Source: an uncultured bacterium
Lineage (GTDB): Bacteria > Patescibacteriota > Minisyncoccia > Phycocordibacterales > DATDWN01
Assembly (NCBI GenBank): GCA_963727715.1
Contig: CAVSGX010000004.1
Span: forward strand, 8,455-72,454
Length of the DNA stretch: 64,000 nt
Direction of reading: 5' to 3'
Shown here piece by piece: positions 3,420 to 58,832 of the stretch; the stretch's first letter is position 1, and each line of letters starts with the position of its first letter. Under the pieces are notes generated by a model, which made no database searches, was not told the origin of the DNA, and was given only the letters and a program-made list of their open reading frames with translations. A program made the position numbers and the translations under genes.

Positions 3420-3442
3420 TGAATAACTGAGCCAACACATAC

Positions 3443-3476
3443 AAAAAATACCGCCTAGGCGGTATTTTTTGTTTTG
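3443..3476. terminator. Bidirectional intrinsic terminator between the convergent HTH gene and gatB
   Basis: aaaaaataccgcctaggcggtattttttgtttt: a GC stem (ataccgcc/ggcggtat) flanked by A-run and T-run. Confidence 0.55.
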
Positions 3477-3485
3477 TCATTTGTC

Positions 3486-4910: not shown

Positions 4911-4921
4911 ATGGAGTTATA

Positions 4922-5890: not shown

Positions 5891-5966
5891 GGAAACACTC
5901 TAACAGAAAAACAGACAAAAAGAAAACTCTTTTTAAGAGTTCATGGATTTTAAAAACGAAATAGAA

Positions 5967-6518: not shown

Positions 6519-6522
6519 ATTT

Positions 6523-6900
6523 TTATTGTGGCAATGGACACCCTGTTTTTTGAGTAAGATCGGAAAGTTGTTCTACACCTGGTGTTGTGCTGGTTGAGTT
6601 TGGAAATTGCCAAGTTGGGTATTCAACAATTCCTTTGTCCTTGCAAGCTTGGGTCTGACTCTGACCATCTGGAGTAGAACATTCTACGTAAGGAAGCAGG
6701 TGTACAGATGAACCAAACATAGCTTTCTGTTCCTGACAGTGTGGACACCAGAAAGCACCGTAAAAAACCGCCCCACTGTTTTTAATACAAGTGGCAAAGC
6801 TGTCATATTTCCCAACCGTCACCCTCGGCGGAGCAACAATAATATAGACAACACCAACCAAAACAACCAAACCAATTAAAATATAAAGAATTTTTTTCAT
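6523..6900 (-). CDS. Thioredoxin-fold thiol-disulfide oxidoreductase, DsbA-like (CPHC active site), membrane-anchored
   Basis: N-terminal TM/signal anchor; AFWCPHCQEQ is a CxxC thioredoxin motif identical to the DsbA CPHC site; adjacent to the DsbB-like gene. Confidence 0.65.
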   Translation of the reverse strand: MKKILYILIGLVVLVGVVYIIVAPPRVTVGKYDSFATCIKNSGAVFYGAFWCPHCQEQKAMFGSSVHLLPYVECSTPDGQSQTQACKDKGIVEYPTWQFPNSTSTTPGVEQLSDLTQKTGCPLPQ

Positions 6901-6960
6901 ATAAATATATTATAATAACGTGCCATTTATAGTAGCACACCTAAAAATTATTTCCATTAT

Positions 6961-7599
6961 TTAAATGAGATTCCATTCTAAAATTAGACTGGTTTTTCTG
7001 CTGGACTCGGCTACCAAGTCTATTGAATCTACGGTGAACTTCTCCACACTAAGCATAAAAGATATTTTATCTATTATTTGGCCCATAGAGTTTTTCTTGT
7101 CCGGCAGAAAACCCAGAGTGATGTGGGGTTTGAAATCGGTTACATACGGATTGCCGTATTTTTTCAAACTTTCCACCTGCTTTTGATTAAGCTGAGAAAT
7201 TCTTTTTTCATAATCTGGATCAAGACGATCCCCTTTAAAAGGCTCTACGGCAGCCAAAATTTTCTTCTGCAACCTGTCCAAATCAGGATTGTTTTTTATT
7301 TCCACATATAAAAGCCCAAAAGAGAAAGATTTCATTTCGGAAATCTGACATTCAATTTTTGGCTGGCTAACTAAAATTTCGTCTAGAGCGATTTTGATTT
7401 TCTCCACATTGCCGGTCGGCACCGAAAGATCATAGAAATTAAGATGGGGTTTCAGATGGTCGGAGTAAGCCATGCCGGCCGACAGTTCACGAACTAGATA
7501 GTTGTTTATTTTCTTCAAATCAAAAAACAAAGCTGAATTTTCTTTAATCACAGCCGACACGCCAAGCCATTTGTAATTCGGGTCTATTTCATTTTTCAT
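6961..7599 (-). CDS. Hypothetical protein (weak resemblance to 2H phosphoesterase: HITLGF motif)
   Basis: 212-aa ORF with coding-like composition; only one clear H-x-T-x motif, so the 2H/LigT assignment is tentative. Confidence 0.45.
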   Translation of the reverse strand: MKNEIDPNYKWLGVSAVIKENSALFFDLKKINNYLVRELSAGMAYSDHLKPHLNFYDLSVPTGNVEKIKIALDEILVSQPKIECQISEMKSFSFGLLYVEIKNNPDLDRLQKKILAAVEPFKGDRLDPDYEKRISQLNQKQVESLKKYGNPYVTDFKPHITLGFLPDKKNSMGQIIDKISFMLSVEKFTVDSIDLVAESSRKTSLILEWNLI

Positions 7600-36654: not shown

Positions 36655-38508
36655 TCAATGCTGTTCAGGTTTATTTTTATCAATTGTGTCGTCCACATTA
36701 AGCACTTTACGCAAAACCTCTTCCGGCACTTCTTTCCCCGACGCTGGCGCGGCTGGGGTTTGGACGATTTCTTTTTTAATTCCGGGTTTTATTTCCGTTT
36801 TTATTTCCGGTTTATTCATAACTTGAGACAGAGCATTTTTCAAACTGGAAATATTTTCCACTGTCGGATTTTTTTTATTTTCACTTGAATTCAGAGTAGA
36901 TAATGAAGCTGTTTGCGCAGTTGGAGGATTCTTATTTGAATCTACTGGTTTTCTCTGCGAAAAAGATTTGTTGCGCAAATCTTCGGTGGCTTTTATAAAA
37001 GCCAACTTATTAGGATCAGGGGTTGCAATTGTTGGAGTATTGTTCTGGTTGTTATATTTCTCTTTCTCACTGAAAGGCTTGTTAAAAATCGGACGATTGT
37101 CGACGCTTCGCTGAGGAGATGCCGGCGCAGATAAGGGCATAGGCGAAAAGCTGGAACGTCCTGTTCCTATATTTCCGTCGCCTTGCCCACCACCAGCCAT
37201 TTTGTCTCTTTGGGCCGATGTCCCCTCTTCATGCCATTTTTTTATTTCTGCCTCGACTTCGCCCCGTGGTCGGGTAAACTGTTTCCACGAGCTTTCCATA
37301 ACTTCTTTTTTGAATGAGACATCCGGCCTAGTAATCGGTGGCATAGTGACAGCTGAAAACGGCGCTGAAGAAACTTCATCGATCATCAATTTCAAATAAA
37401 TTTGGTATTTGCCAAGATTGACCAAATCTTCGGCGGTGAAAGTTGGAGCGAATTCTTTTTCCAAAACTTCAGCATCAAAAGCGCCGACTCGAAATGTGAC
37501 CATGGTGCCAACGTTGCCGAAAACGGCGTCGCGCACTTCCTCTTCCATTTGCTCAATGTACTGATGTGTGATGTTTAAACCTAATTTGTACTTGCGGGCT
37601 TCGGACAAAATGTCGGCAAAAGATTTGTTGGCGAAAGATTGAAACTCGTCCACATACAAATAAAAATTCGGCAGTTTGGCTAATTGCTCTTTGTTTTTGT
37701 CCGCTCGAGACATGGCCGCCAAGTATATTTTTGTGATAAGCATTGAACCAATGAGGTTGGCATTGCCCTCACCAACAAGCCCTTTGGACAAGTTGATGAG
37801 CAATATCTTTTTCTCATCCATAAAATCGCGAATGTCAAAAGATGATTTCGGCTGGCCGATTAAATTTCGGACAAGCGGGTTTGATGTGAATTGTCCGACT
37901 TTGTTTTGAATAGCCGGTGTGGCTTCGGCTGCGTATTTGTCGGTGTATTTGGCAAATTCCTCCGTCCAAAAAGTTTTGACCGATGGATCTTTGATGTTCT
38001 CCACCACTTTTTTGCGATACTCTTTGTCAGCTAACATTCGATTAACACCAAGAAGTGTGGCACCCGGATATTCCAAGAGCGCCAAAAGAGTGTTGTTTAA
38101 AATGTAAGCCATGCGAGCTGACCAAGCATCCACCCAGATTTTCTCAAACGTGGACATGAGGCCGTTGACCACCAGATGTCTTTTGTCCACACCAATATCT
38201 TCCAAGACATTGAAAGAAACTGGATGTTCCAAATCAAATGGCGCGAAATAAAGCACATCTTTGATGCGATTTTCCGGGATGTAATCCAGCAGTTTTTCGG
38301 CCATTGAACCGTGCGGATCTATGACGGCGATACCGTTGCCATTTTGAATATCCTGGATGGCCATATTTTCCAAAAGATTGGACTTGCCAACGCCGGTTTT
38401 GCCGATAACATAAACATGACGCAAGCGATCGCTTTCTTTGATACCAAAACGGATTTTTTTGTTGCGAGCGTCCGTTTCGGCAAAATATGTGATGGGGTTT
38501 GGGTCCAT
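36655..38508 (-). CDS. P-loop NTPase of the FtsK/HerA/TraD (type IV secretion DNA-binding domain-like) class with low-complexity Pro/Ser/Asn-rich C-terminal tail
   Basis: Walker A VIGKTGVGKSNLL, Walker B LYVDEFQSF; no TM segment; 617 aa. Confidence 0.55.
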   Translation of the reverse strand: MDPNPITYFAETDARNKKIRFGIKESDRLRHVYVIGKTGVGKSNLLENMAIQDIQNGNGIAVIDPHGSMAEKLLDYIPENRIKDVLYFAPFDLEHPVSFNVLEDIGVDKRHLVVNGLMSTFEKIWVDAWSARMAYILNNTLLALLEYPGATLLGVNRMLADKEYRKKVVENIKDPSVKTFWTEEFAKYTDKYAAEATPAIQNKVGQFTSNPLVRNLIGQPKSSFDIRDFMDEKKILLINLSKGLVGEGNANLIGSMLITKIYLAAMSRADKNKEQLAKLPNFYLYVDEFQSFANKSFADILSEARKYKLGLNITHQYIEQMEEEVRDAVFGNVGTMVTFRVGAFDAEVLEKEFAPTFTAEDLVNLGKYQIYLKLMIDEVSSAPFSAVTMPPITRPDVSFKKEVMESSWKQFTRPRGEVEAEIKKWHEEGTSAQRDKMAGGGQGDGNIGTGRSSFSPMPLSAPASPQRSVDNRPIFNKPFSEKEKYNNQNNTPTIATPDPNKLAFIKATEDLRNKSFSQRKPVDSNKNPPTAQTASLSTLNSSENKKNPTVENISSLKNALSQVMNKPEIKTEIKPGIKKEIVQTPAAPASGKEVPEEVLRKVLNVDDTIDKNKPEQH

Positions 38509-38587: not shown

Positions 38588-38672
38588 AGTAAAGAAAAAT
38601 TCAAAATTCAAAAACAAAAGAAAAAACAAATCGACAAGAGACAAGCTACCTTTTTGGAAATCACAAGAACGA
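38588..38672 (-). repeat. Conserved 3' flank downstream of the DGR VR/IMH (copy 1 of 3; other copies at 40604..40682 and 43418..43492)
   Basis: aaaattcaaaattcaaaaacaaaagaaaaaacaaatcgacaagagacaagctacctttttggaaatcacaagaac is present after all three target genes. Confidence 0.8.
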
Positions 38673-39650
38673 GCGGGAGAGGCGACCACCCAGAGGCGGA
38701 TGGGAACTGGACGGAGCATCGGCACGGACACCGAGCCGGGAACCGGCGGGGTTCCAATAGGCGCAGACGACACGAAAGGAAGATGGGGCGGTTTTGTCAG
38801 GGTTTGGCACTTTAGACCCGGGCAAAGCGGTCCAGTAGTATAGACCATCTTTCTCGTTTTTGGTGTCTATGTGCTTGCCTGTTTGTTCAAAGATTTTTCT
38901 TTGCAGGATGAGATAATCGGACAGAGTTAGAGATTGGTTCGGAGGCAAGGAGAGAAAGGTTTCAATCTTTTTGTTCAGAGTTTGTTTAAGCTCTGATTGT
39001 TGCCAGAGTTCTTGACTGTGGACTAGAACGATTCTTCTTTTTTTGTCTTCTATTACTCCTTCAAACCCGCCACCCGAGTTGAAATTGCTTCCGGTGTATG
39101 TTTCGTTGTATCCTTCCGACATTTTAGCGTTTAGGTCTGTCAGGTTTGGCAGAGTTTCCGGAATGAGCAGGATTGTGTCAAAACCGTGTTTTTCTATTTC
39201 TTCTCTGATTTGGTCAATGTTTCTTTCCCAGATGTTTTTCATCGTCTCGGAGAAGTCTTTCGGTCTGTCTATGGAGTGGGTTGTGTAAAAGGAAGTAAAG
39301 TATTCTATTTCTTTTTCAATATCTATGGTTATGGTTTCTTTCTTTTCTTCAGTGGTTGTTTTGCCGGTTTTTTCGTCTTTTGTCTCTTCGATATGTTTGT
39401 ATTCCACTTCTAGAGTTGTTGAGGATTTGCCTTCTATCTTTCTTTTGAGAGAACGGCATTGGGAGAGTGTTTCTTTGATTTTCAGGCTTAGTTCTTTCTG
39501 TTTCTCTGTATCTCCGCTCTCAATGGCTTTTAGGAGTTTATCTTTCATTTCTTCGGCCTGAGAGAGCAGGCCTTCCATTACGGTCAAGTCGGCCAGAGCT
39601 TGTTCTTTGGTTGGTGGAGAGTTTGGGATTTTGGGAGATTCGTGGGACAT
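38661..39650 (-). CDS. DGR target protein 1 (329 aa): Glu/Lys-rich coiled-coil N-terminus, conserved ligand-binding-type C-terminal domain ending in the variable repeat
   Basis: C-terminal region is shared with 40671..41660 and with the C-terminus of 43485..45512 (..YNETYTGSNFNSGGGFEGVIEDKKRRIVL..). The VR lies at the extreme 3' end, and the stop follows the IMH-like GC-rich TCGCCTCTCCCGC. Confidence 0.8.
   Translation of the reverse strand: MSHESPKIPNSPPTKEQALADLTVMEGLLSQAEEMKDKLLKAIESGDTEKQKELSLKIKETLSQCRSLKRKIEGKSSTTLEVEYKHIEETKDEKTGKTTTEEKKETITIDIEKEIEYFTSFYTTHSIDRPKDFSETMKNIWERNIDQIREEIEKHGFDTILLIPETLPNLTDLNAKMSEGYNETYTGSNFNSGGGFEGVIEDKKRRIVLVHSQELWQQSELKQTLNKKIETFLSLPPNQSLTLSDYLILQRKIFEQTGKHIDTKNEKDGLYYWTALPGSKVPNPDKTAPSSFRVVCAYWNPAGSRLGVRADAPSSSHPPLGGRLSRSFL
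38674..38771 (-). repeat. DGR variable repeat VR-1 (3' end of target gene 38661..39650)
   Basis: 98-bp match to the TR at 43081..43177; within the TR/VR alignment it differs from the TR only at template adenines (sense strand), apart from one sense-strand T-to-G difference in the IMH-proximal segment; encodes VVCAYWNPAGSRLGVRADAPSSSHPPLGGRLSR. Confidence 0.85.
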
Positions 39651-39666
39651 AATGGATGGATGATAA

Positions 39667-40347
39667 TCAGTCTAATTTTATTAATTTCTTTGTCAGAACA
39701 GGAATTTCTTTTTGAAAAAAAGTTTTGACCGAATTCCAATCAGCGTCAAAAAAGATGACCGGCTCTGGATCGCTTTCGGCATCGTCAAAATAAACCATAC
39801 TTTTCAAGATATGGTGATAGTCGTGAGCCACAGACGGATACTGTCCCGGCAATCGTCTGATAATATTTTCCAGCGGTTCCACATTTTTGGCGCACCAGTA
39901 CAAATCAAAGAAATCTCTTTTTCTGCCTCTTTGCGAGCTGGCGATTATTTTCATCACGGCCACATCCGTTTTATTCAAAATTTTGACAAAACCGTATTCC
40001 AAAAATTTTTGTTTTGGAATAAAAAACGGATAAGCGATAAAACTGATTTTGGTGTCATACAATACGCCATATAAAGTGTTTGGTTCATCAATATCCGTGC
40101 TCCAATTTTCATTGCTTGCAAAACGAGATAACAGTTTCTTTGTTATAAAACTTTTTTCTGTGGTAAAAAAATCCAAATCAACAGATTTGCGATTGCCGGC
40201 CTGCAAAGCTAAGGCGGTGCCACCGGCCAGATACCAGCCTGATTCACTCAGCCATTCTTGGGTTGATAAAAAATCCAGAGCTGTTTTGGTTGATTTGGGT
40301 AAACATGAAAAGTTGATGATATTTAATTTTGAAGTGTCAGTGTCCAT
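39667..40347 (-). CDS. Nucleotidyltransferase AbiEii/AbiGii-family toxin (DUF1814)
   Basis: WYLAGGTALALQAGNRKSVDLDFF matches the AbiEii GGTAL...R.S.DlDf signature; 226 aa. Confidence 0.7.
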   Translation of the reverse strand: MDTDTSKLNIINFSCLPKSTKTALDFLSTQEWLSESGWYLAGGTALALQAGNRKSVDLDFFTTEKSFITKKLLSRFASNENWSTDIDEPNTLYGVLYDTKISFIAYPFFIPKQKFLEYGFVKILNKTDVAVMKIIASSQRGRKRDFFDLYWCAKNVEPLENIIRRLPGQYPSVAHDYHHILKSMVYFDDAESDPEPVIFFDADWNSVKTFFQKEIPVLTKKLIKLD

Positions 40348-40603
40348 AATGCTTTTGTTCTTGGTCTCAAAGACCGTGATGCAGAAACAACTTTTCTCAA
40401 CAATGCCTTGTCATAAAAATTCCAAAGCCAGCGAACCTCATTATCCCTGCCAAAATCTAAAATTCTCTCAATTATATATTGAGCGTTTTTTTCAGTGTCA
40501 ATTCTGCTGACATCGGTGTCCCAAAACAAAGATTGTCTAAATGGCATACCTTCATTATATCAAATTTTGAGACAATATTCAACAAAAATCAAAATGCAAA
40601 AAT

Positions 40604-40682
40604 AAAAAATTCAAAATTCAAAAACAAAAGAAAAAACAAATCGACAAGAGACAAGCTACCTTTTTGGAAATCACAAGAACGA
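40604..40682 (-). repeat. Conserved 3' flank downstream of the DGR VR/IMH (copy 2 of 3)
   Basis: Same 3'-flank repeat family as 38588..38672 and 43418..43492 (aaaattcaaaattcaaaaacaaaagaaaaaacaaatcgacaagagacaagctacctttttggaaatcacaagaac); lies immediately downstream (minus-strand sense) of target 2 and its VR/IMH. Confidence 0.8.
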
Positions 40683-41660
40683 GCGGGAGAGGCGACCACC
40701 CAGAGGCGGATTGGAAATGGACGGATCATTGGCAACGACATTGAGCTGGGAACCGTCGGGGTACCAATGGGCGCAGACGACACGAAAGGAAGATGGGGCG
40801 GTTTTGTCAGGGTTTGGCACTTTAGACCCGGGCAAAGCGGTCCAGTAGTATAGACCATCTTTCTCGTTTTTGGTGTCTATGTGCTTGCCTGTTTGTTCAA
40901 AGATTTTTCTTTGCAGGATGAGATAATCGGACAGAGTTAGAGATTGGTTCGGAGGCAAGGAGAGAAAGGTTTCAATCTTTTTGTTCAGAGTTTGTTTAAG
41001 CTCTGATTGTTGCCAGAGTTCTTGACTGTGGACTAGAACGATTCTTCTTTTTTTGTCTTCTATTACTCCTTCAAACCCGCCACCCGAGTTGAAATTGCTT
41101 CCGGTGTATGTTTCGTTGTATCCTTCCGACATTTTAGCGTTTAGGTCTGTCAGGTTTGGCAGAGTTTCCGGAATGAGCAGGATTGTGTCAAAACCGTGTT
41201 TTTCTATTTCTTCTCTGATTTGGTCAATGTTTCTTTCCCAGATGTTTTTCATCGTCTCGGAGAAGTCTTTCGGTCTGTCTATGGAGTGGGTTGTGTAAAA
41301 GGAAGTAAAGTATTCTATTTCTTTTTCAATATCTATGGTTATGGTTTCTTTCTTTTCTTCAGTGGTTGTTTTGCCGGTTTTTTCGTCTTTTGTCTCTTCG
41401 ATATGTTTGTATTCCACTTCTAGAGTTGTTGAGGATTTGCCTTCTATCTTTCTTTTGAGAGAACGGCATTGGGAGAGTGTTTCTTTGATTTTCAGGCTTA
41501 GTTCTTTCTGTTTCTCTGTATCTCCGCTCTCAATGGCTTTTAGGAGTTTATCTTTCATTTCTTCGGCCTGAGAGAGCAGGCCTTCCATTACGGTCAAGTC
41601 GGCCAGAGCTTGTTCTTTGGTTGGTGGAGAGTTTGGGATTTTGGGAGATTCGTGGGACAT
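40671..41660 (-). CDS. DGR target protein 2 (329 aa); recent paralogous duplicate of target 1
   Basis: Protein is identical to target 1 except within the VR-encoded tail. About 1.07 kb of DNA (40604-41670 vs 38588-39660) is near-identical outside the VR. Confidence 0.8.
   Translation of the reverse strand: MSHESPKIPNSPPTKEQALADLTVMEGLLSQAEEMKDKLLKAIESGDTEKQKELSLKIKETLSQCRSLKRKIEGKSSTTLEVEYKHIEETKDEKTGKTTTEEKKETITIDIEKEIEYFTSFYTTHSIDRPKDFSETMKNIWERNIDQIREEIEKHGFDTILLIPETLPNLTDLNAKMSEGYNETYTGSNFNSGGGFEGVIEDKKRRIVLVHSQELWQQSELKQTLNKKIETFLSLPPNQSLTLSDYLILQRKIFEQTGKHIDTKNEKDGLYYWTALPGSKVPNPDKTAPSSFRVVCAHWYPDGSQLNVVANDPSISNPPLGGRLSRSFL
40684..40781 (-). repeat. DGR variable repeat VR-2 (3' end of target gene 40671..41660)
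   Basis: Encodes VVCAHWYPDGSQLNVVANDPSISNPPLGGRLSR. Within the TR/VR alignment all differences from the TR are at template adenines (sense strand), apart from one sense-strand T-to-G difference in the IMH-proximal segment. Confidence 0.85.
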
Positions 41661-41672
41661 GGAAGTATTCTA

Positions 41673-42700
41673 TCATGTTATAACAATATCATTCAATATT
41701 GAAGTCAGTTTGTTTTTTAATCCAAATGAATCGCAGTGTTTCAGTAAAGCAAAATAAGACTGAAAATTATTCTTGTTCATTCTTTCAAAAATTTTTTGCT
41801 TGGTTTTATCTCTCAATAAAAGACAATCTGGCAAAGTCAGAGATCCTAGAAAATCTACTCCCCATTTTAATTTTCTGATTGAGATTTTATCATCCGGGAT
41901 TTGCAGAAACAGTTTTGCCATAAATTTTTTAATTTCAACCAAACAAAACCCCAATCTTTTTTTATTTTTATTTACCAAAATAAAATCGTCGTTGTATCTT
42001 ATATAAAATCTGGCGTTTAATTTTTTCTTCACAAAATGGTCAAAATCGTTCAAATAAATGTTGGCGAAAATCTGGCTGGTGATGTTGCCGAGCGGGATGC
42101 TTTTGTCAGAGCCATGAAGCGAGCAAAAACTTTCTACTATTTTCCCCACTTCCAAAAAAATATTTTCATTTTTCACTTTTCTTTTGATAAATTTCAGCAG
42201 TAGGCGGTGGTTGACACTTTCAAAGTATTTTTTGACATCGCATTTTAAAATAAAAACATCCCCATTTTTTCTTTTCGCCAATCCATTGAAATATTGGAGA
42301 GTTTTGACGGCTTTATGCGTTCCTTTTCCGTCTCTGGATGAATAACGGCTTTATGCGTTCCTTTTCCGTCTCTGGATGAATATGAGTCGGCAATAAATGC
42401 CGGCTCAAATAGATTTTTCAAATAATCGGATATTATTTGATGAATAATTCTATCTTTAACTTCAGCTTTGTGAATATTTCTTTTCTTGTTGTCAGTAACA
42501 ATAAAATGCGAATACCCGCCATGGCGGTAAGTTTTGTTTTTCAGATCTCTGTGCAAATCAAAAATATTGTCTTCCAAATGTCTTTCAAAAATCATTACAT
42601 CCATCTTGGAGGACTTTCCCCGCCGAAATTTCCGCCAAGCTGAAAATATATTATCAAGACTGAATAATTCGTTATAATTTTTATGGAACAAGACGCTCAT
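41673..42700 (-). pseudogene. DGR reverse transcriptase, reading frame broken by a 38-bp tandem duplication (ORF track pieces 42245..43024 and 41673..42281)
   Basis: N-terminal piece: LFSLDNIFSAWRKFRRGKSSKMDVMIFERHLEDNIFDLHRDLKNKTYRHGGYSHFIVTDNKKRNIHKAEVKDRIIHQIISDYL...DSYSSRDGKGTHKAV (DGR-RT motifs 1-2). C-terminal piece: ILKCDVKKYFESVNH, IPLGNITSQIFANIYLNDFD, YIRYNDDFIL (YxDD). Deleting one copy of the 38-bp unit fuses the two pieces in frame to ...GKGTHKAVKTLQYFNGLAKRKNGDVFILKCDVKKYF.... Confidence 0.85.
42307..42382. repeat. Perfect 38-bp direct tandem duplication (2 copies) inside the RT gene
   Basis: acggctttatgcgttccttttccgtctctggatgaata occurs twice in tandem; 38 is not divisible by 3, so this is a frameshift. 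Confidence 0.9.
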
Positions 42701-43057
42701 AAAATTGAAAAATTGGAAATGCCTATTATGGCCAAACTCTTTATCATTTACGAACTGACGCACAAGCTTATTTTCAAATTGCCGAAATTTGAAAGATACA
42801 CTTTGGGTGAAAAAATTGAAAATATCATCTTGGAAACGATTGAAATAATTGTCATCGCCAATGGGACGAACAAATACGAAAAAGAAAAATATTTGCTCAA
42901 AGCCAATGCCAAAGTGGAAATGCTTAAGTTGCTTTTTCGCATCGTTTTGAACTGCCAAATCATTGATTTCAAAAAATATTTGGAGGCGGAAGGGTTGCTT
43001 CAAGAAATCGGCAAAATGGCGCAAGGTTGGATAAAATACACCAGAAACGCAAAATAG
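42683..43057 (+). CDS. avd: Avd (accessory variability determinant; four-helix-bundle protein, bAvd/23S-rRNA-IVP family), transcribed divergently from the RT; likely start at Met 42719
   Basis: KLFIIYELTHKLIFKLPKFERYTLGEKIENIILETIEIIVIANG...LLKANAKVEMLKLLFRIVLNCQII...EAEGLLQEIGKMAQGWIKY matches the four-helix-bundle family pattern (FPK.E.Y.L..Q..R...SI..NIAEG......f...A.GS..El...l..a..l.yi......l......igkml.gli). The antisense strand here gives only a Phe-rich nonsense extension of the RT ORF. Confidence 0.7.
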   Translation: MEQDAHKIEKLEMPIMAKLFIIYELTHKLIFKLPKFERYTLGEKIENIILETIEIIVIANGTNKYEKEKYLLKANAKVEMLKLLFRIVLNCQIIDFKKYLEAEGLLQEIGKMAQGWIKYTRNAK

Positions 43058-43080
43058 CTTTTGTATAAAGCAAGAACGGC

Positions 43081-43177
43081 GGGAGAGGCGACAACCCAGA
43101 TTCGGATTGGAATTGGACGGATCATTGGCATTGACATTGAGCTGGGAATTGTCGGGGTTCCAATTGGCGCAGACGAC
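43081..43177 (-). repeat. DGR template repeat (TR), noncoding, between the VR-bearing main target gene and avd/RT
   Basis: Sense strand reads ..VVCA NWNPDNSQLNVNANDPSNSNPNLGCRLSR with 9 AAT (Asn) codons and no in-frame stop context. IMH*-like end TCGCCTCTCCCGCCGTTCTTGC differs from the VR IMH ends (..CCCGCTCGTTCTTGTGA). Confidence 0.85.
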
Positions 43178-43417: not shown

Positions 43418-43492
43418 AAAAAATTCAAAATTCAAAAACAAAAGAAAAAACAAATCGACAAGAGACAAGCTACCTTTTTGGAAATCACAAGA
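43418..43492 (-). repeat. Conserved 3' flank downstream of the DGR VR/IMH (copy 3 of 3)
   Basis: Same 3'-flank repeat family as 38588..38672 and 40604..40682 (aaaattcaaaattcaaaaacaaaagaaaaaacaaatcgacaagagacaagctacctttttggaaatcacaagaac); lies immediately downstream (minus-strand sense) of the main AAA+ target and its VR/IMH. Confidence 0.8.
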
Positions 43493-45512
43493 ACGAGCGG
43501 GAGAGGCGACAACCCAGATTCGGATAGGAATAGGACGGATCATCGGCACCGACAACGAGCTGGGAATAGCCGGGGTCCCAATGGGCGCAGACGACGCGGA
43601 AACCGCCGGATGGATTTTTGACTGTTGAGCCGGGTAGCCATGTCCAACCGTCTTCATCCAAATGTTTGCCTGTTTGTTCAAAATATTGCTTTTGATACAA
43701 CAAATAATCTGTCAGAGACATTTTTTCACCTTGCGATATAAACTCCTCGGCTTTTTTATTCAGAGTTTTCTTCAGTTCCGAATGGTCTTTCAGATTTTGA
43801 GCGCTGTTTTTATGAATCAAAACGATTCTTCTTTTTTTGTCTTCTATTACTCCTTCAAACCCGCCACCCGAGTCGAAATTGCTTCCGGTGTATGTTTCGT
43901 TGTATCCTTCTGACATTTTTTTATGTATATCGGTTATGGTCAATCCTCCGGGCACAAGCAAAATCTCATCAAAACCATATTTTTCTACTTCTTGTTTTAT
44001 CTCGTCATAATTGTTCACCCATATATCCGCCATTTCTTCCGCAAATGATTCCGTCAATTCAATTTCGTGAGCTTTATAAAAAAGAAGAGAATCCTCAAGT
44101 TTTTTGTCAAAATTTATTTCTATTTTCTCTTTCTTTTCTTTGCCTTTCTCGTCCACGATTTTGTGTTCGGCAGAAACCACCGGTTCAAACGAACTGCCGG
44201 TCAATTCTCTTCTTTTACTTCTGAAAAATTTCTCCAAATCGGCTATTTCATTTTCAATCTTCTCTATCCCGTCCGCCGGACTTTCGGTTTTACCACCTTC
44301 AGGAATTGCCTCAGCAGACGCTTCTTTTTCTTCTTCGTTATTTTTCTTTTTTCTTTTCGTTCCTTTGCGTTTGGAATCTTTGGTTTCTATTTTGACTTCA
44401 ACCAATCGGATGATTTCTTCCAATTTTGTTCTGTCTTCGGCGCTTTCCAGTCTGTTGACATAATAATATTTCAGGGCTTTTTGAAAAGTTTCGCTGATGT
44501 CGCCATTGTAAAAACGCAAAACAAAATTTCTGACCCGCCTCGGCTCTTCGCGGTCGTCATAGGTGAAAACTTGTGGTTGATCTTCGGCGATTTGCCTGTT
44601 TTTCAAAAGTTCTTTGGCGGTTTTGTGAAATTCCTTGTATTTTTCCAAAATTTCGGCAATGCCTGGAATTTCCGAAAGTTGTTCCTGCGTCAAACCACCG
44701 GCGCCGGATAAAAACATATCATCAGGCAATTCGGCGGTTTTCTTTTCCAAACCGTTCTCTAAACCAAACAATGCACCAGTCGCTTGCTTAAAGGTCTCTT
44801 CCGGTAATTCATTTGGCATTTTTTTATAAACCCATCTGCGAAGCTGAGCTGGATCAAGTGGCTTTCTATCCAAATAACCGGCTCCCGGAGGATTCATAAA
44901 AGCGATGATTTTGGTTTTTTGTTTAGAAACTTTAACTGTTTCCGAAGCGTCTTCTGACAAAATGACATCGCTATCACGCTCCAGAGAATCCAAAACTTCA
45001 TGCAAACGAATCAAAATGTTCGGCGCCGATGAGTTGAATTCGTCCAAAACAATAATTTTGACTTTACCGTCTTCCTGTCGTAAACCGCTAGTTACTTTTC
45101 CGTCGGCGAAAATGTATTCCGGGTCTTCCGCATTATTTTTACGAGGATTTGGTATATATCGGCCCATCAAATCCTCCACATCCGTGGCACCGTTTAAGTT
45201 TATGTAATGAACTTCGTAGCCGAGCTCACTGGCCATTTTTCGCACCGTGGTGGTCTTACCAAAAGATGTTCCGCTTTCCACGGCAATAGGGTCGCCCATG
45301 GAAAACGACACGGCGATGTCACGTTGCAGTGGCAGAGCCACTTCGGTATCATTGGTGTAGTCCTTGTAATTTTCTCTTCTTGGCACAAATTGGCCATTTC
45401 TGTTTTTAGCTTTTTCCAGAGTAACACCCATATAAGAAACACTCCCGTCAGTTTCCATTATCGGCTCCAGTTTTGCTTCCGGATTGTTAAATTGTCCTTC
45501 TGGTGTTTTCAT
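43485..45512 (-). CDS. DGR main target: AAA_5/MoxR-type AAA+ ATPase fused to a long acidic linker and the conserved DGR-diversified C-terminal domain (675 aa)
   Basis: Walker A VESGTSFGKTT, Walker B KIIVLDEFN, sensor region ..IIAFMNPPGAGYLDRKPLDPAQLRRW. The C-terminal 170 aa is homologous to targets 1 and 2 and ends in VR-3. No signal peptide or TM segment. Confidence 0.85.
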   Translation of the reverse strand: MKTPEGQFNNPEAKLEPIMETDGSVSYMGVTLEKAKNRNGQFVPRRENYKDYTNDTEVALPLQRDIAVSFSMGDPIAVESGTSFGKTTTVRKMASELGYEVHYINLNGATDVEDLMGRYIPNPRKNNAEDPEYIFADGKVTSGLRQEDGKVKIIVLDEFNSSAPNILIRLHEVLDSLERDSDVILSEDASETVKVSKQKTKIIAFMNPPGAGYLDRKPLDPAQLRRWVYKKMPNELPEETFKQATGALFGLENGLEKKTAELPDDMFLSGAGGLTQEQLSEIPGIAEILEKYKEFHKTAKELLKNRQIAEDQPQVFTYDDREEPRRVRNFVLRFYNGDISETFQKALKYYYVNRLESAEDRTKLEEIIRLVEVKIETKDSKRKGTKRKKKNNEEEKEASAEAIPEGGKTESPADGIEKIENEIADLEKFFRSKRRELTGSSFEPVVSAEHKIVDEKGKEKKEKIEINFDKKLEDSLLFYKAHEIELTESFAEEMADIWVNNYDEIKQEVEKYGFDEILLVPGGLTITDIHKKMSEGYNETYTGSNFDSGGGFEGVIEDKKRRIVLIHKNSAQNLKDHSELKKTLNKKAEEFISQGEKMSLTDYLLYQKQYFEQTGKHLDEDGWTWLPGSTVKNPSGGFRVVCAHWDPGYSQLVVGADDPSYSYPNLGCRLSRSFL
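43496..43593 (-). repeat. DGR variable repeat VR-3 (3' end of the AAA+ target gene)
   Basis: Encodes VVCAHWDPGYSQLVVGADDPSYSYPNLGCRLSR. It differs from the TR at 12 positions, all corresponding to TR adenines. Confidence 0.85.
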
Positions 45513-45515
45513 ATT

Positions 45516-45917
45516 TTATGAACGATAAACCGGCCCAACTTTGTCTATAATTTCAAAACTTCTTTCTTTCAATTTCGCCAAAACGCTTTCCGTAGCGACC
45601 AAAACCAAAACCTGACTTTGATAATCAGGTGAAAAAACTTTTGATTCATTTTTTTCTTTATCAAAAATCTCAACTTGACCTGTCGGATACTGCGCGACAA
45701 AATCATATAAGTCCTTCGGTAGATTTTCGTCCAAAACCAGATACATTTTTTGAAAACCAAAAAAATCAAAAACATTTTTTGATGTTTGAAATCCACTATC
45801 TTCAAAAAACTTGATAAAACCACCCATCTCGCTTTCATCCCGCGCCAAAACAAGTCCGACATCTTTTTGTCCTTTCAAGATATCCAGAAACTCATGCAGA
45901 CCTTCGTTTTTGTTCAT
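45516..45917 (-). CDS. Hypothetical small protein (133 aa) between the VWA partner and the AAA+ DGR target
   Basis: Complete ORF; 4-bp gap to the downstream gene suggests co-transcription. Confidence 0.5.
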   Translation of the reverse strand: MNKNEGLHEFLDILKGQKDVGLVLARDESEMGGFIKFFEDSGFQTSKNVFDFFGFQKMYLVLDENLPKDLYDFVAQYPTGQVEIFDKEKNESKVFSPDYQSQVLVLVATESVLAKLKERSFEIIDKVGPVYRS

Positions 45918-45956
45918 AGTTGTATTCTAACACTAACCGGAAAATTATCAAATTTT

Positions 45957-48242
45957 TCAACCAACAACTTCTTTCTCAAGTATTTCTGATATATCTTTTA
46001 TTATTTTGTCCACTTTTATATTATCGGATTTTAGCGGGTAATAAATAAGCTTTACACCGCCGGCTTTTTCGATTTTGCCTTTAATTTTTTGAAAATCATA
46101 TTTTGAGCCGGGATGTTTAGTGGATTCAGCTGGTCTGTCATCCGAAAAAACAATCATTATTTTGTTGTCTGTTTTTTGTTTTGCAAGTCTTGCCGAAGCG
46201 GTTTCCATAGCCCAACCAATGTCGGTTTCATTATGCTCATTTCCGCAATTTTTGCAACAACTATCTTCAACCTCTTTAAACATTCCTCCCATGTGTTCCC
46301 TGATTTTTTTTGACATTGGCTCTCCAAATTTTTGATACTCGTATATATCATCATTAAAACCGTTAATTTCAACGTTCAATCCTAGTTTGTTTAATGCTTC
46401 AGCCAGCACAACTTTTGCTTTGAAATCTTCTTCAATTTTTTTACGCATAGAACCAGATAAATCGTTTAGAATGGAAATTGAATATTCTTTTTCATCTGGT
46501 TTTTCTCTTTTTTGCCAAGCGTTGCTTTCTATTGGCGAAATGCGTCTGGCTTTTTCCTGAATCCTTGTTTTTATATCAATTCTTTTGCCTATTCTAAAGC
46601 CCTTTTTCCATCTTGTGGTTTGGGTGTCAACAAATATCTGTCTTAGTTTATTTTCCAATTCATCAATCAGCGACGAAACTTCTCGTCGGTGCTTTTCATA
46701 AATATTTTCGTCTTTATTGACTTCTCTTTTTAATCTTTCTTTGTATATTCTCAATCCTTCCAAATCAAGAGGTTCTTTTCTTAAAGTTCCGGTTCTGACC
46801 GGAGCGCCGCCTTGATTTTGATTGTTTATTTCAACCCCTGGCAAATTTTCCGGCGGTTCTGGATTTTTTCTTTCTGCTTTTTCCTCCGGATTTTCAGTCA
46901 ATTTGCCTTCCATTTCTTCGTTTAGTTTGTCTTCAAATTCCTTCAGCGCTTTTTCGGCTCTGTCGGCCAGCTCTTTTTTCACATCTTCCGGAAGCGAGTC
47001 GACATAATCCCTTATTTTTTGTTTTATTTCGTCGGAAAGGTCGTTCAGGTTTATTGTCCTCGCACCGATATCGTCTAGCGTCTGTGGTTGTTCATTGCCG
47101 GTGTTGTCTTCGTGTGGAGTCGGCTTGTTTGTGATTTTATCTTCTCCCTGCCCACCTGTTGACATTGGTTTGATTTTTTCTTTCTCTTTTTTTGCTTCAT
47201 CAATAGCTTTGTCAATAGCATTTTCCAACGTTTTCTTTTCTTCTTCGGTTAATTTGTCTTCCAAATCTTTTGGCAGTTTTGATTTTTTTTCATTTTTTTT
47301 ATCTTCACTTTCTCCTTCCTGATTTCCGTTATCTTTTTGTCCATCACCACCTTCCTTCCCATTTTCTCTTTCTTGCTCTTTTTTCATTTCTTCCATCATC
47401 TTTTTCATCACATCTTTCAACACTTCTTCCATTTTCTCATCCTCTTTATCTGCTTCAACCAGTTTTTTAAATTCTGGCCAAATTTCTTCCAGATTTATTT
47501 CATACGACACTTTGGCGTATTCTTTTATTTTTTCTTCACTTTCATCCGCTTCCTCTCGCGACGGATATCGCCACCAAGAATCCTGAGCTGATTTCAGTGT
47601 GGCTAAAACAACAGCTTTGACTTCTTCGGGCAAATCTTCCGAAATTTCAAAATTCTGTCCCTGTTTTTCACGAAACCATTGTCTAATATATTCATACCCC
47701 GCTTGCACAAAACGCGGTTGGAAACCCAGTTTTTCGGTAGCTTCTTTCTTTTCTTTTTCTCTTTTGGCAAAAAAATCATCCCAAGCAAATTTTATATTTT
47801 CATCGTATTTCGGATAACTCTCGGAAACAAAGTTGTCGTTTCTGGGATCTTCAATGAAATTCATCATAGCTGAAAAGCCCGGTTGTCGCCATGTTTCAAT
47901 CGGAATAAAATCTGTTCTGGAAACTCGTCTATGTCCTCCTTCGTGACAAATTAAATATCTCAATAATTCAATTGGCTCCGTCAGCAGAGTTTTCGGGTCA
48001 ACTCTGATGACATTTTTTTGAAAATCCCAATGCCAGCCAGCGCCTGGTTGGTTTAGTTCTATCGGCATCTCAAAATCTTTGCCAATAAAATAAGCCAGAG
48101 ATGACAAAATATTTTTCTTGCGCAGAATTTCTTTTTGTTCTTCTTCGTTAAATCGCTTCAAGATTTCCTCTTCTGGATTTTGCCGGAGAGAATCGTAGGT
48201 TTGTTCGTTTTGATTGAATTTTGGTCCTTCCATAATTTGCAA
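45957..48242 (-). CDS. Putative zinc metallopeptidase (HExxH) N-domain, Glu/Lys-rich low-complexity linker and C-terminal VWA (MIDAS) domain; DUF2201-like AAA-partner architecture
   Basis: LICHEGGHRRVS (HExxH); central 300 aa of E/K-rich repeats; C-terminal ..ISILNDLSGSMRKK.. (DxSxS MIDAS) ...IMIVFSDDRPAEST... Confidence 0.75.
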   Translation of the reverse strand: MQIMEGPKFNQNEQTYDSLRQNPEEEILKRFNEEEQKEILRKKNILSSLAYFIGKDFEMPIELNQPGAGWHWDFQKNVIRVDPKTLLTEPIELLRYLICHEGGHRRVSRTDFIPIETWRQPGFSAMMNFIEDPRNDNFVSESYPKYDENIKFAWDDFFAKREKEKKEATEKLGFQPRFVQAGYEYIRQWFREKQGQNFEISEDLPEEVKAVVLATLKSAQDSWWRYPSREEADESEEKIKEYAKVSYEINLEEIWPEFKKLVEADKEDEKMEEVLKDVMKKMMEEMKKEQERENGKEGGDGQKDNGNQEGESEDKKNEKKSKLPKDLEDKLTEEEKKTLENAIDKAIDEAKKEKEKIKPMSTGGQGEDKITNKPTPHEDNTGNEQPQTLDDIGARTINLNDLSDEIKQKIRDYVDSLPEDVKKELADRAEKALKEFEDKLNEEMEGKLTENPEEKAERKNPEPPENLPGVEINNQNQGGAPVRTGTLRKEPLDLEGLRIYKERLKREVNKDENIYEKHRREVSSLIDELENKLRQIFVDTQTTRWKKGFRIGKRIDIKTRIQEKARRISPIESNAWQKREKPDEKEYSISILNDLSGSMRKKIEEDFKAKVVLAEALNKLGLNVEINGFNDDIYEYQKFGEPMSKKIREHMGGMFKEVEDSCCKNCGNEHNETDIGWAMETASARLAKQKTDNKIMIVFSDDRPAESTKHPGSKYDFQKIKGKIEKAGGVKLIYYPLKSDNIKVDKIIKDISEILEKEVVG

Positions 48243-55605: not shown

Positions 55606-56425
55606 GGATCTCCCAGGGTCATTTATATTTCTGTTCCAAACATCCGAATCGAGATTTTCGATAAGATTTATCGTGTGCTTCCTTCTGACTCACCGCAGAA
55701 GTCGCACATCTCTTTTTTTTGATTCGGCTGCTCTTTGCTACTAGGATCCTTCAGTCCAGTCATTGCTGATTGTGGACCTACCCGTTCGCTATTTTCACAC
55801 TCCTGTGAAAAGTTGGATTTGAACCAACTAGATATATAAACTGCCTGGCGCATTTTATTCTGAGTACAAGACTTGAGAACGTATTCACCGCGGTATGTCT
55901 GACCCGCGATTACTAGCAATTCCAACTTCATGGGGTCGAGTTTCAGCCCCCAATCTGAACTGGGGCGACTTTTCTAAGGATTGGCTCAGGGTTACCCCGT
56001 CGCAACCTGTTGTAGTCGCCATTGTATTATGTGTGTAGCCCAAGGTATCAAAGGGACATGCTGATCTGGCGTCATCCTCGCCTTCCTCCCAGCTCCAGTT
56101 GCGCAAGATGAACGAACTCGGTTAAGACCGAATACGGACATCGATGTTTGCACAGAGAGACATCTACTTATGATGTTCTTGTGCAACTGGAGCTGGGCAG
56201 TCTCGCCTGATACTTATAACAGACAACGAGGGTTGCGTTCGTTACCCCACTTAAGGGAACAATTCAAATCACGAACTGACGACGACCATGCATCACCTGC
56301 CTAACTGTCCTTGTGGGACCGCAAACGTTTCTGCTTGCATTCAGTTAGGTTTCAAACCTTGGTAAGATTCTTCGTTTATCATCGAATTAAACCACATAAT
56401 CCACTGCTTGTGCAAGTCCCCGTCT

Positions 56426-56457
<32 letters not shown>

Positions 56458-56641
56458 ACCCAGGCGCTTGACTTAACGCGTTAGCTACGCCACGCAGAGG
56501 GTCGATACTCCGCATAGCTAGTCAAGATCGTTTAGGGCGTGGACTACTGGGGTCTTAATGTTACTTCAAAATTTTGGGAAATTTTGAGGCACAACATTTC
56601 TGTTGTACTCTGCATGTTGCCATGCAGTTCGGACTATATCT

Positions 56642-57403
56642 TTATCTGTATGTATTCCACTTAGCTTTTTTCTTTTCATATTCTGCTATTATGACAGATT
56701 CTGAAAAATTACTAAGAGAAACCATTTCAGATATCCAGCGTTCTTGAAATTGAGAGTTTTTATATAGAAGAATTGCTTTGGATAACATGCTCGATACTGG
56801 TATGTATGGCAGTATGATACGCAAGAATTTTTTTAATTCTTCTTGTGACCTAATCCATAACCGCCAGTATTGTTCTTGCTTCCCATCTTGCTTACGCCCG
56901 ACGGGGGCAACAATGGCACGAACATCCCAAACAACTTTAAGATAGCGAGCTAGCATTTCGACTGATTGTTTTGAAAAACCATCAGTACAAAACACACCTT
57001 TTCTGGCGCCGTAACCAATAAGCGAACCGTCATCACACCACCAAACGGCGAGTGATAACGCTGTCATTTGATTAAGCCACCTACGCTCTATAAGCAATTT
57101 ATTTTGTTTGTGAGTTAAATGATGAAGTTCTGTAAGAGATGAAGTTCGCCTACTGGCAAATCTCCATTTTTTGTTCTTACTGTATCCATCAGGTTCCTGC
57201 ACAAACACACTGCTATCTCCTGCTATCTCTTTGAGAGCTTGCGCTTTCCATAAGAGATAATCTTTCTGCATTTCCGAATGACGAATTTGTAAATTCGCAT
57301 TGAAATAATTTTTTTGGATTTTTAGCGAGCCGTCTCCAAGGATTGAACCGAAGATAATAGCTTTCGCTTCATCCGACAAAGGCACATATTTCGTATCATG
57401 CAT
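56642..57403 (-). CDS. LAGLIDADG-family homing endonuclease (double-motif) encoded within 16S intron 1
   Basis: IIFGSILGDGSL and LAVWWCDDGSL are two LAGLIDADG motifs; 253 aa. Confidence 0.85.
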   Translation of the reverse strand: MHDTKYVPLSDEAKAIIFGSILGDGSLKIQKNYFNANLQIRHSEMQKDYLLWKAQALKEIAGDSSVFVQEPDGYSKNKKWRFASRRTSSLTELHHLTHKQNKLLIERRWLNQMTALSLAVWWCDDGSLIGYGARKGVFCTDGFSKQSVEMLARYLKVVWDVRAIVAPVGRKQDGKQEQYWRLWIRSQEELKKFLRIILPYIPVSSMLSKAILLYKNSQFQERWISEMVSLSNFSESVIIAEYEKKKAKWNTYR

Positions 57404-57702: not shown

Positions 57703-58832
57703 AATTAGTGCTAGAAACTTCCCTCGGGGTTGTCCATACGAAATCAGTAAATTTCATATTGTATGGAGTTTCCCCGATATAGCTAGATTACAATTCTATG
57801 TCACCATAGAAAAGAGACACCTTCGTCCTATATTTTATTAGCGGGACTGGATTATCTAATCCCATTCGCTACCCACGCTTTCGTGTTTCAGTGTCAGGAG
57901 TGGCCCAATGTGCTGCCTTCGCTTTCGGTGTTCCCCATGATATCAACGGATTTCACCCCTACTCCATGAGTTCCACACATCCCTGCCATCCTCTAGTCGT
58001 GCCGTTTCGCTCGCACTTCCGGGGTTAAGCCCCGGGTTTTAACAAGCGACTAACACAACCACCTACACACCCTTTACGCCCAATAATTCCGGATAACGCT
58101 CGGGGCACTCGTATTACCGCTGCTGCTGGCACGAGTTTAGCAACCCCTTATTCTTGAGGTACTATCAATAAACTTTCTCCCTCACAAAAGATGTTTACGA
58201 CCCAGAGGGTCTTCATCCATCACGCGGCGTCGCTCGATCAGGCTTTCGCCCATTGTCGAATATTCTCGGCTGCTGCCACCCGTAGGTGTATGGACCGTCT
58301 CTCAGTTCCATCGGTGGGGGCCAAGCTCTCACTCCCCCTACGCGTCATAGCCTTGGTAGGCCGTTACCCTACCAACTAGCTGATACGACGCAGACTTTTC
58401 CTTTAGCGATAAATCTTTCCTCCGAAGAGAATATCAAGTATTACCTAATCTTTCGACTAGCTATTCCTGACTAAAGGGTAAATCTCTGCGCATTATTACC
58501 TCGTTCGCCACTGTCCTTGCGGACCGTTTGACTTGCATGCCTTATCCACGCCGCCAGCGTTCATCCTGAGCTAGGATCAAACTCTTAATAAAGATTTATT
58601 AAGATCTATCTTTTAAGAACGGAACAAAATAAAGGAAAATACTTTTGGTATCGCGATTATTTTATTTTTCTTTGATGAACACTGATTGTGTTTTTGGTTG
58701 ATTGTTATTGATGTTGTGAATTTTGCTGAATTCACTTTCCGGAATTATTTTAAAAGAATATTTTGCATCCGACTGTTTTTGACAAAACAGCCGAACTGTA
58801 AAACTTGCACGTTTTACATTCTCTAAATAAAG

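Follow-up and report, generated by a model that had tools for sequence, protein, structure and literature searches.

Two copies of one target gene lie about 1 kb apart in the genome of an uncultured member of the Patescibacteriota, and they are identical except in the segment that a retroelement rewrites. Are these copies simply young, or is something keeping them alike, and does the toxin-like gene between them belong to the arrangement? The locus is a diversity-generating retroelement (DGR) with three target genes, T1, T2 and T3, in a stretch of 64,000 nucleotides (nts) that was analysed as a whole (assembly GCA_963727715.1, contig CAVSGX010000004.1, positions 8,455 to 72,454; hereafter the window). 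A preliminary description, made from the letters without database searches, had read T1 and T2 as a recent segmental duplication with an AbiEii toxin gene inserted between the copies. The analysis leads us to a different explanation, to which we assign a probability of roughly 55%: the layout would be old and shared between lineages, recombination would keep the two copies uniform, the DGR would rewrite their variable repeats (VRs) and a gene pair of the toxin-antitoxin (TA) type between them would stabilise the whole.

The two target copies differ only at template adenines

The features needed for the argument are the following, in window coordinates.

38595..39650, minus strand: repeat copy 1, made of T1 and 66 nts of 3′ flank (alignment with 40605-41660)
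38661..39650, minus strand: target gene T1, 329 aa, orphan family (open reading frame, ORF)
38673..38771, minus strand: VR1, the last 33 codons of T1 (comparison with the template repeat, TR)
39667..40347, minus strand: short DUF1814/AbiEii-family nucleotidyltransferase (NTase), 226 aa, putative toxin (Pfam AbiEii, motifs, fold)
40323..40547, minus strand: DUF6922 protein, 74 aa, putative antitoxin (Pfam DUF6922)
40554..40582, minus strand: promoter-like site, TTGAAT, 17-nt spacer and TG-extended TATAAT (consensus match only)
40605..41660, minus strand: repeat copy 2, made of T2 and 66 nts of 3′ flank (alignment)
40671..41660, minus strand: target gene T2, 329 aa (ORF)
40683..40781, minus strand: VR2 (TR comparison)
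43079..43177, minus strand: TR, rich in AAT/AAC codons (repeat search and VR mismatch pattern)

Pairwise alignment, followed by base-by-base comparison at an offset of 2,010, showed that 38595-39650 and 40605-41660 are the same over 1,056 bp save at 12 positions (38702, 38707, 38716, 38720, 38725, 38726, 38731, 38732, 38737, 38746, 38753 and 38759). These mismatches occupy a 58-bp span (38702-38759) within the 99-bp VR, there are none outside it, and 12/12 fall on adenines of the TR (43079-43177 in minus-strand reading), which has 21 A in 99 nts. Under random placement, all 12 differences would land on the 21 A sites with a probability of about 8e-23 if the full 1,056 bp are considered, and of 3e-10 for the VR alone. 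The identity is bounded on one side exactly by the target start codon (39650/41660), and on the other by a point 66 nts past the target stop codon (38595/40605). The preliminary description had thus rightly seen two copies nearly identical outside the VR and a duplication at this place, while its bounds (38588-39660 and 40604-41670, 1.07 kb) were a few bases too generous, the unit being 1.056 kb and the VR 99 bp.

Comparison of each VR with the TR gives the same picture. VR1 has 16 mismatches, 15 of them at TR adenines, and VR2 has 10, of which 9 are at TR adenines; the exception in each is T85G, the only non-A change in the VRs, which is common to both. In VR3 all 11 mismatches are at TR adenines, which brings the sum over the three VRs to 35/37. 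VR1, VR2 and VR3 each end 9 nts before the stop of T1, T2 and T3, respectively. Besides the non-adenine T85G, VR1 and VR2 have non-template states in common at TR positions 28-29 and 76-77, which is suggestive, from few sites, of rewriting confined to TR positions 13-70 after the two copies had last been the same.

At least one of the two copies has been acted on by the DGR since T1 and T2 were last the same, and the substitutions are retroelement-directed. Because the sole differences between the copies are A-templated VR substitutions, the pair of copies is a valid internal control for targeting to the VR, as had been proposed.

The arrangement recurs in a diverged lineage

On the minus strand of the window, the gene order is VWA, a 133-aa gene (p133), AAA5::T3, TR, Avd (on the opposite strand), reverse transcriptase (RT), T2, DUF6922, NTase, T1 and a VirD4/TraG-like ATPase. 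The relatives are all Patescibacteria metagenome-assembled genomes, which, together with a 16S rRNA gene interrupted by a LAGLIDADG endonuclease ORF in the window, identifies the host as a member of this group. In one lineage, designated ELA, the order is target, TR, Avd (opposite), RT, 318-aa target, DUF6922, 226-aa NTase and again a 318-aa target. Its proteins are 63% (RT), 76% (Avd), 73% (NTase), 80% (DUF6922, in P0010) and 53% (target) identical to those of the window, and the target genes are 63% identical in nts. Despite this divergence, the two ELA copies, T_A and T_B, compared on megahit contigs from different samples (L005 and L006), are identical over about 1,003 nts save for 12 positions (gene positions 865-923), and 12/12 of these are on adenines of ELA's own TR. 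Hence, otherwise identical copies that differ at 12 TR-adenine sites only, an indirect signature of DGR activity, are found in both the window and the sister lineage.

Within a genome, the copies are 98.7-98.8% identical in nts with differences confined to the VR, versus 63-70% between lineages. A layout common to a diverged lineage, with VR-only divergence in each, makes the within-genome identity look maintained by concerted evolution, and the claim that the duplication is recent is not supported. Such identity is not automatic for copies of this gene, since the three T paralogues of another locus (L119), which include two neighbours and have no TA pair among them, are only 77-82% identical in nts throughout. 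A further locus (L121) has RT-VWA-T and then housekeeping genes, and it lacks both the pair and a second copy.

Two other lineages appear to have the pair in the same position. L118 is 86% (DUF6922), 80% (NTase) and 56% (target) identical to the window, while L090 is 66%, 61% and 36-40% identical, respectively, its target belonging to a different clade of the family. Both assemble as closed cycles of pair plus target (1,897 nts in L118, 2,065 nts in L090), with exact end overlaps of 30 nts (L118) and 99 nts (L090) that stop at the position matching the 3′ boundary of the window repeat. These overlaps imply that a target 3′ end lies upstream of the pair, in addition to the target downstream. 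The conservation of the pair between direct repeats is thus seen in two lineages and is probable in four, and the junction from NTase to target is 9-19 nts long in the window, ELA and L118.

In a neighbour-joining tree of the target family, win_T1/T2, L118_T and ELA_T_A/T_B form one clade in which the copies are grouped by genome, while the upstream targets win_T3c and ELA_T_up group together by position. The most economical reading of these sequences is that the ancestor of the window/ELA/L118 clade already possessed target-pair-target.

The NCBI metagenome-assembled genome of the ELA lineage (L004/L012; GCA_037134875.1, JBAXLH010000010.1) has three target copies that are 100% identical, at 1-1020, 2701-3712 and 4647-5666. 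It was set aside as evidence, as the megahit contigs show a different upstream target as well as VR differences between the two downstream copies. It is a probable repeat collapse, because the upstream target of L005 is different and resembles T3.

DUF6922 as the partner of a short nucleotidyltransferase

The gene product between the copies is an AbiEii/DUF1814 protein, as the preliminary description had stated. The 226-aa NTase matches Pfam AbiEii (PF08843) with 54 bits against a cut-off of 22.5 (E=3e-14), and it has 2,813 homologue clusters, many of which carry the NCBI name 'AbiEii/AbiGii toxin family'. Across 35 aligned homologues, NTase motifs I-IV do not vary (GGT 42-44, DLD 57-59, K133 and R144-D145..D148; motif definitions from PMC10435456 and general knowledge). 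An AlphaFold2 model (pLDDT 89.5) has among its best Foldseek matches 4ok0, a DUF1814 NTase of H. pylori (E=2e-7, TM 0.55), and M. tuberculosis MenT1 (8an5 at 8e-6, with 8an4 also among the best PDB matches), and it matches M. tuberculosis MenT4 (6y56) at 5e-4. The NTase is thus predicted from the model to have the bilobed MenT/AbiEii fold.

Upstream lies a 74-aa ORF that overlaps the NTase start by 25 nts. It had been correctly located at 40323-40547, and the absence of a recognisable AbiEi antitoxin was correctly noted too, as no AbiEi match was found in Pfam, NCBIfam or PADLOC. The ORF is not, however, an anonymous one: it matches Pfam DUF6922 at 1e-17 and is a near-obligate partner of this NTase subfamily. 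DUF6922 is 62-86% identical across most of the approximately 115 Patescibacteria loci fetched, and neither its model, with four helices (pLDDT 94), nor its sequence gave a specific match in PDB, AbiEi and MenA1 included. A literature search for DUF6922 found no papers.

The pairing was surveyed in 117 fetched loci, of which 110 could be evaluated for a downstream NTase. In 99/110, DUF6922 is followed directly by a full-length NTase, usually with an overlap of 20-25 nts, while an intact DUF6922 stands beside a truncated, frameshifted or absent NTase in 10-11 loci. The reverse, an NTase without an upstream DUF6922, was seen in 0/100. This asymmetry is the one expected of an antitoxin and its toxin, and the 74-aa protein is likely to be the cognate antitoxin, although not an AbiEi.

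An extended -10 box stands at the matching place before DUF6922 in L005, L118 and L090, and together the two genes may be considered a putative self-contained, autonomous module of the TA type with its own promoter-like site. Extended -10-like boxes, TGATAGAAT and TGATATAAT, were observed in the window at 41667-41696 and 40554-40582 (minus strand). They end 6 nts before the ATG of T2 and of DUF6922, with similar ones in the sister lineages, a spacing that might point to leaderless transcripts. In total, promoter-like sites are no more numerous than expected by chance.

The pair outside the DGR locus

The DUF6922-NTase pair was found in thousands of Patescibacteria sequences, and over 90% of about 110 pairs lack any DGR, AAA_5 or VWA gene at a distance of 8 kb or less. 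Among these loci, there are about six separate placements near such genes (the window clade, L090, L092, L058, L002 and L023). A general linkage of the pair to DGRs was considered and rejected: it looks enriched, but some six placements are too few and too non-independent for significance. The statement that the AbiEii gene was inserted between the copies does not hold in that form, as the pair belongs to a conserved arrangement and is a self-contained module that mostly occurs outside DGRs.

Several of the other placements deserve description. In L092 (Ga0182027_10028696, 170-7210; DUF6922 83%, NTase 79%), the pair, among the closest relatives of the one at the window locus, lies directly upstream of a different DGR, with a 756-aa AAA_5 target bearing a C-terminal VR, a TR, Avd (opposite), an RT and a 639-aa VWA-like protein. 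The family and the neighbourhood are as elsewhere, and the insertion point is different. In L002 (GCA_023267025.1, 3413-8676), the pair has on one side a 747-aa AAA_5 protein, which shares 52% identity with the target of the L092 DGR, and on the other a VWA protein of 611 aa; no RT was found within the 14-kb locus. L086 (3277-6532) is a further instance of the pair between duplicated genes. There, the pair and an Avd-like four-helix-bundle gene are flanked by paralogous lipoprotein genes (260 and 262 aa) that have in common a 623-nt stretch, 88% identical, and that diverge in their C-terminal parts. Finally, L052 has two DUF6922-NTase pairs (4803-6027 and 9342-10591), about 4.5 kb apart and 88% identical over 1.25 kb, which indicates that the pair itself can be duplicated.

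The remainder of the DGR locus

The other features of the locus are listed below.

36655..38508: VirD4/TraG-like ATPase gene, beyond T1 (Pfam scan)
41673..42700, minus strand: DGR RT gene, two frames as assembled (RVT_1 match to the C-terminal ORF)
42307..42344 and 42345..42382: perfect tandem duplication, 2 x 38 nts, in the RT gene (repeat search)
42683..43057, plus strand: Avd accessory gene, divergent from RT (Pfam bAvd)
43485..45512, minus strand: target gene T3, 675 aa, with an N-terminal AAA_5 ATPase and a C-terminal half homologous to T1/T2 (Pfam, tblastn)
43497..43595, minus strand: VR3 (TR comparison)
45516..48242, minus strand: 133-aa gene and 761-aa CobT_C/VWA protein (CobT_C 1.4e-6)

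The 202-aa C-terminal ORF of the RT matches Pfam RVT_1, a generic RT model that is not specific to DGRs, at 9.8e-15, and the RT carries the PLGNITSQIFANIYLN and YNDD motifs. As assembled, the gene is frameshifted just after the SYSSRDGKGTHKAV motif, where a 38-nt unit, ACGGCTTTATGCGTTCCTTTTCCGTCTCTGGATGAATA, occurs twice in tandem. Deletion of one 38-nt copy in silico restores a single RT ORF, giving an RT of about 330 aa from MSVLF. The frameshift could reflect inactivation, a reversible on/off state or population variant, or an assembly error, and it makes present-day DGR activity doubtful in this genome.

Avd matches Pfam bAvd with 64.5 bits against a cut-off of 40 (E=1.4e-17), and NCBIfam DivGenRetAVD at 5e-19 with 68.5 bits, under the cut-off of 80. 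The 5′ ends of RT and Avd overlap by 12-18 nts in three lineages (window 42683-42700, about 18 nts; L004 1714-1731; L120 1540-1551). The TR is located past the 3′ end of Avd, so that transcription from TR to RT would cross Avd in antisense; the three lineages have this layout in common. T3 matches AAA_5 at 5e-12 (Pfam), and its C-terminal half is similar to T1 by tblastn. The P0126 contig has the order VWA / ~130-aa / AAA_5 / Avd / RT / T, as at the window locus; the VWA protein and the ~130-aa gene are conserved neighbours of this type of DGR.

Elsewhere in the window, the 16S rRNA gene gives two Rfam matches, at 55812-56668 and 57762-58592 (minus strand). An ORF within the intervening sequence (56642-57403) encodes a 253-aa LAGLIDADG_2 homing endonuclease (5e-32). 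Such insertions are known in candidate phyla radiation (CPR) rRNA genes.

Target family and possible traces of local conversion

The T1 family has no Pfam match and no PDB sequence match, and only 16 homologue clusters were found among 5.8 billion proteins. An attempt to name it, with Pfam run on 18 members and a profile searched against PDB, gave coiled-coil noise only.

In their shared half, T1 and T3 are about 50-60% identical in nts, with two exceptions. One is a 99-nt patch of 98% identity (39027-39125 and 41037-41135 versus 43821-43919), encoding KMSEGYNETYTGSNFNSGGGFEGVIEDKKRRIV, which suggests a gene-conversion tract between T1/T2 and T3 or else very strong constraint. The other is the VR and about 75 nts of its 3′ flank, which are near-identical. 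This flank is conserved across T1, T2 and T3 while that of the TR differs; it is therefore not TR-derived, and must be kept by selection or conversion. About 20 nts after the ...CCCGC end of the VR, it contains a motif that reads GGTAGCTTGTCTCTTG in the window and GTAACTTGTAGCTTG or GTAGCTTGTAGCTTG in other lineages (sites within 38595-38672, 40605-40682 and 43419-43496, L005 ~3339-3400, L118 ~1847-1897 and L090 ~1-99). Absent after the TR, this motif may be a DGR target-recognition element. No significant hairpin or cruciform was found 3′ of the VRs when DNA folds of the flanks from four lineages were compared with shuffled sequences (z -0.3 to +1.5).

How two copies could be kept alike and kept apart

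The segment made of a target and the pair can be regarded as a 2,010-bp repeat unit that is present 1.5 times. Recombination, by gene conversion and/or unequal crossing-over of this unit of about 2 kb, would keep T1 and T2 identical, while mutagenic retrohoming from the single TR would rewrite each VR independently. The outcome would be a cell with two variable C-termini on an otherwise identical protein. The putative NTase toxin probably adds nucleotides to tRNA 3′ ends, by analogy with MenT toxins, and the small helical DUF6922 protein would be its antitoxin, in a manner analogous to MenA1 and MenT1. Because the pair lies between 1-kb direct repeats about 1 kb apart, any recombination that collapses the duplication also deletes the pair. 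Post-segregational killing might then remove the collapsed segregants and so lock the two-copy state. Look-ups with the exact T1 and T2 proteins returned no collapsed variants on record.

In its fullest form, this explanation describes a conserved, 'locked' twin-target locus, that is, a 1.5-copy and possibly expandable array of about 2-kb units downstream of the RT, in which the module forbids collapse and DUF6922 represents a new antitoxin class for short MenT/AbiEii-type NTases, widespread in Patescibacteria. We put forward this combination of claims tentatively, at odds somewhat against it. Other roles for the pair would be those of a selfish bystander, of a companion to the AAA_5/VWA/DGR cluster in a defence island or of a component of an amplifiable unit.

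A retro-duplication of a leaderless target mRNA, to which the ATG start and T-rich end of the repeat had pointed, was also considered and dropped, as the sister-lineage repeat starts 9 nts upstream of the ATG. To our knowledge, DGR RTs do not copy whole mRNAs.

Some observations weigh against an old, homogenised and stabilised arrangement. Target-pair-target is complete in two lineages only, as L118 and L090 show just the 3′ end of the upstream target. Neither L011 nor L091, the closest relatives of the pair, has a target or a DGR gene in its vicinity, and the L092 pair adjoins a different DGR target and lacks an upstream T copy; from these placements it follows that the pair is also mobile. 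As regards the toxin, the NTase gave weak, incomplete hits with several PADLOC AbiEii models and none with NCBIfam. Diversification in this genome may have stopped owing to the RT frameshift. Furthermore, assemblers can write one consensus into both copies of a repeat, as the L004/L012 contigs show, and if the 204,555-nt source contig was assembled from short reads, the non-VR identity could partly have arisen in this way.

Taken further, the last point would make the twin copies an assembly artefact, with either a single target and two VR alleles in the population, or copies more different than assembled. The collapse in L004/L012, where one of three identical copies is a different gene according to the megahit contigs, shows how this could happen. 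However, the sequence upstream of the pair has to be a target 3′ flank and that downstream a target start, an independent same-strain Logan contig (L001) runs 30 nts into the repeat on both sides of it, each VR is within k-mer reach of its own unique 3′ flank, and the sister lineage agrees in two separate samples. An artefact thus has a very slight probability. If the copies are real, their identity might simply reflect youth, after a single recent segmental duplication and a later insertion of the AbiEii gene. Zero non-VR differences in 1,056 bp are what such an event would leave, and the many unrelated contexts of the pair show that it is able to move. Nevertheless, matching order and VR-only divergence in a lineage with only 63% nt identity in the target (L005/L006), together with AbiEii-to-target junctions that stay within the 9-19 nts noted above in the window, ELA and L118, would require the same rare series of events to have taken place very recently in each lineage, and we find this history quite improbable.

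The two other alternatives concern the role of the pair. The target and pair might form an amplifiable or excisable unit of about 2 kb, either a variable-copy tandem array or a circle re-entering by homologous recombination, of which the window would be one state (1.5 units), with homogeneity arising from repeated expansion and contraction rather than from gene conversion. The closed cycles of L118 and L090, each with one target, one pair and exact end overlaps, and the similar unit lengths (2,010, 1,946, 1,867 and 1,966 nts) are in keeping with this proposal, which overlaps the explanation favoured here because it is one mechanism of concerted evolution. A unique segment flanked by repeats can equally yield cycles in an assembly graph, though, and the window and L005/L006 have defined chromosomal junctions to RT and to downstream genes; as a separate explanation, an amplifiable unit seems unlikely but deserves to be kept in view. 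The pair could also be a working part of the DGR/AAA_5/VWA cluster rather than an addiction module, as the effector arm of a defence island or as an actor on the DGR product. It does occur at various positions in or beside such clusters in the six or so separate placements, and it has been proposed that MoxR-vWA clusters whose sensors are DGR-diversified are conflict systems (PMC10907252). Against such a role stand the rarity of these neighbours among the approximately 110 pairs surveyed, with more than 90% lacking them within 8 kb, an insertion point that varies between lineages and the promoter-like site of the pair's own, so that we consider it very improbable. An old layout with uniform copies, DGR-rewritten VRs and a stabilising pair is, in our opinion, the best explanation overall.

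Comparison with known systems and significance

In the CPR, multi-target DGRs have an RT of clade 2, and a CLec-type variable domain is often fused to an AAA ATPase (Paul et al. 2017, as given in PMC10907252 and PMC8144416); targets without known domains are likewise on record for CPR DGRs (PMC10907252, PMC8144416). The window locus resembles the multi-target members of this group in its Patescibacteria host, in having an RT, an Avd and one TR that serves several 3′-end VRs, and in its single AAA_5-bearing target, the lack of a recognisable target domain and adenine-specific mismatches. It differs from them in that two of the three targets are identical outside the VR, in the flanking TA-like pair, in a layout conserved across diverged lineages and in its frameshifted RT. 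In Thiohalocapsa PB-PSB1, intragenomic DGR duplication is tied to transposons and miniature inverted-repeat transposable elements, and the copies diverge and shuffle domains (PMC10907252). Both cases involve expansion of a DGR target repertoire through duplication and recombination of the VR-bearing C-terminal region, but at the window locus no transposon was seen, the copies are identical outside the VR and a TA-like pair lies between them.

The pair itself is closest in plan to MenAT1 of M. tuberculosis (Rv0078B/Rv0078A), in which a short DUF1814 NTase toxin is accompanied by the 68-aa upstream antitoxin MenA1, unrelated to AbiEi (PMC10435456). A short NTase with a very short upstream partner is common to both, and the 226-aa protein has MenT1 as one of its best structural matches. 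In contrast, DUF6922 has no sequence or fold match to MenA1 and is predicted to be a folded four-helix protein where MenA1 was predicted to be disordered. Similarly, the pair has the PF08843 toxin, the conserved NTase motifs and the bicistronic, antitoxin-first order of AbiE (AbiEi/AbiEii), but its toxin is shorter (226 aa) and the AbiEi antitoxin (COG5340, winged-helix and kinase-like) is missing. It is not a canonical AbiE system because this defining partner is absent.

Toxin-antitoxin cassettes stabilise repeat-rich arrays, for example in the superintegrons of Vibrio, and tufA/tufB are bacterial duplicates under concerted evolution, kept identical by gene conversion. By analogy, the window locus would combine an addiction module in recombination-prone repeats with homogenised duplicates. 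It would differ from both in that the repeats are DGR target genes, that the only surviving differences are retroelement-written and that the stabilising role of the module is inferred.

The components are thus of known kinds, namely a CPR DGR, a DUF1814 NTase toxin family and the concerted evolution of duplicates. Three features appear to be undescribed so far: a twin-target layout that is conserved and homogenised and has a TA-like pair between the copies, the partnership of DUF6922 with this NTase subfamily, and divergence confined to the VR in each of two lineages.

TR/VR mismatches are usually the only basis on which a DGR is recognised, and the twin copies provide a clean natural control for targeting. 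The repetition of the pattern in a diverged lineage indicates that DGR rewriting outpaces both background mutation and homogenisation. DUF6922, a Pfam domain of unknown function, gains a testable role as the antitoxin of a large family of short NTases in a phylum that has been little tested. The layout also suggests a route by which target arrays may expand and, if it is real, recombination, a retroelement and an addiction module would jointly maintain several variable alleles in very small genomes.

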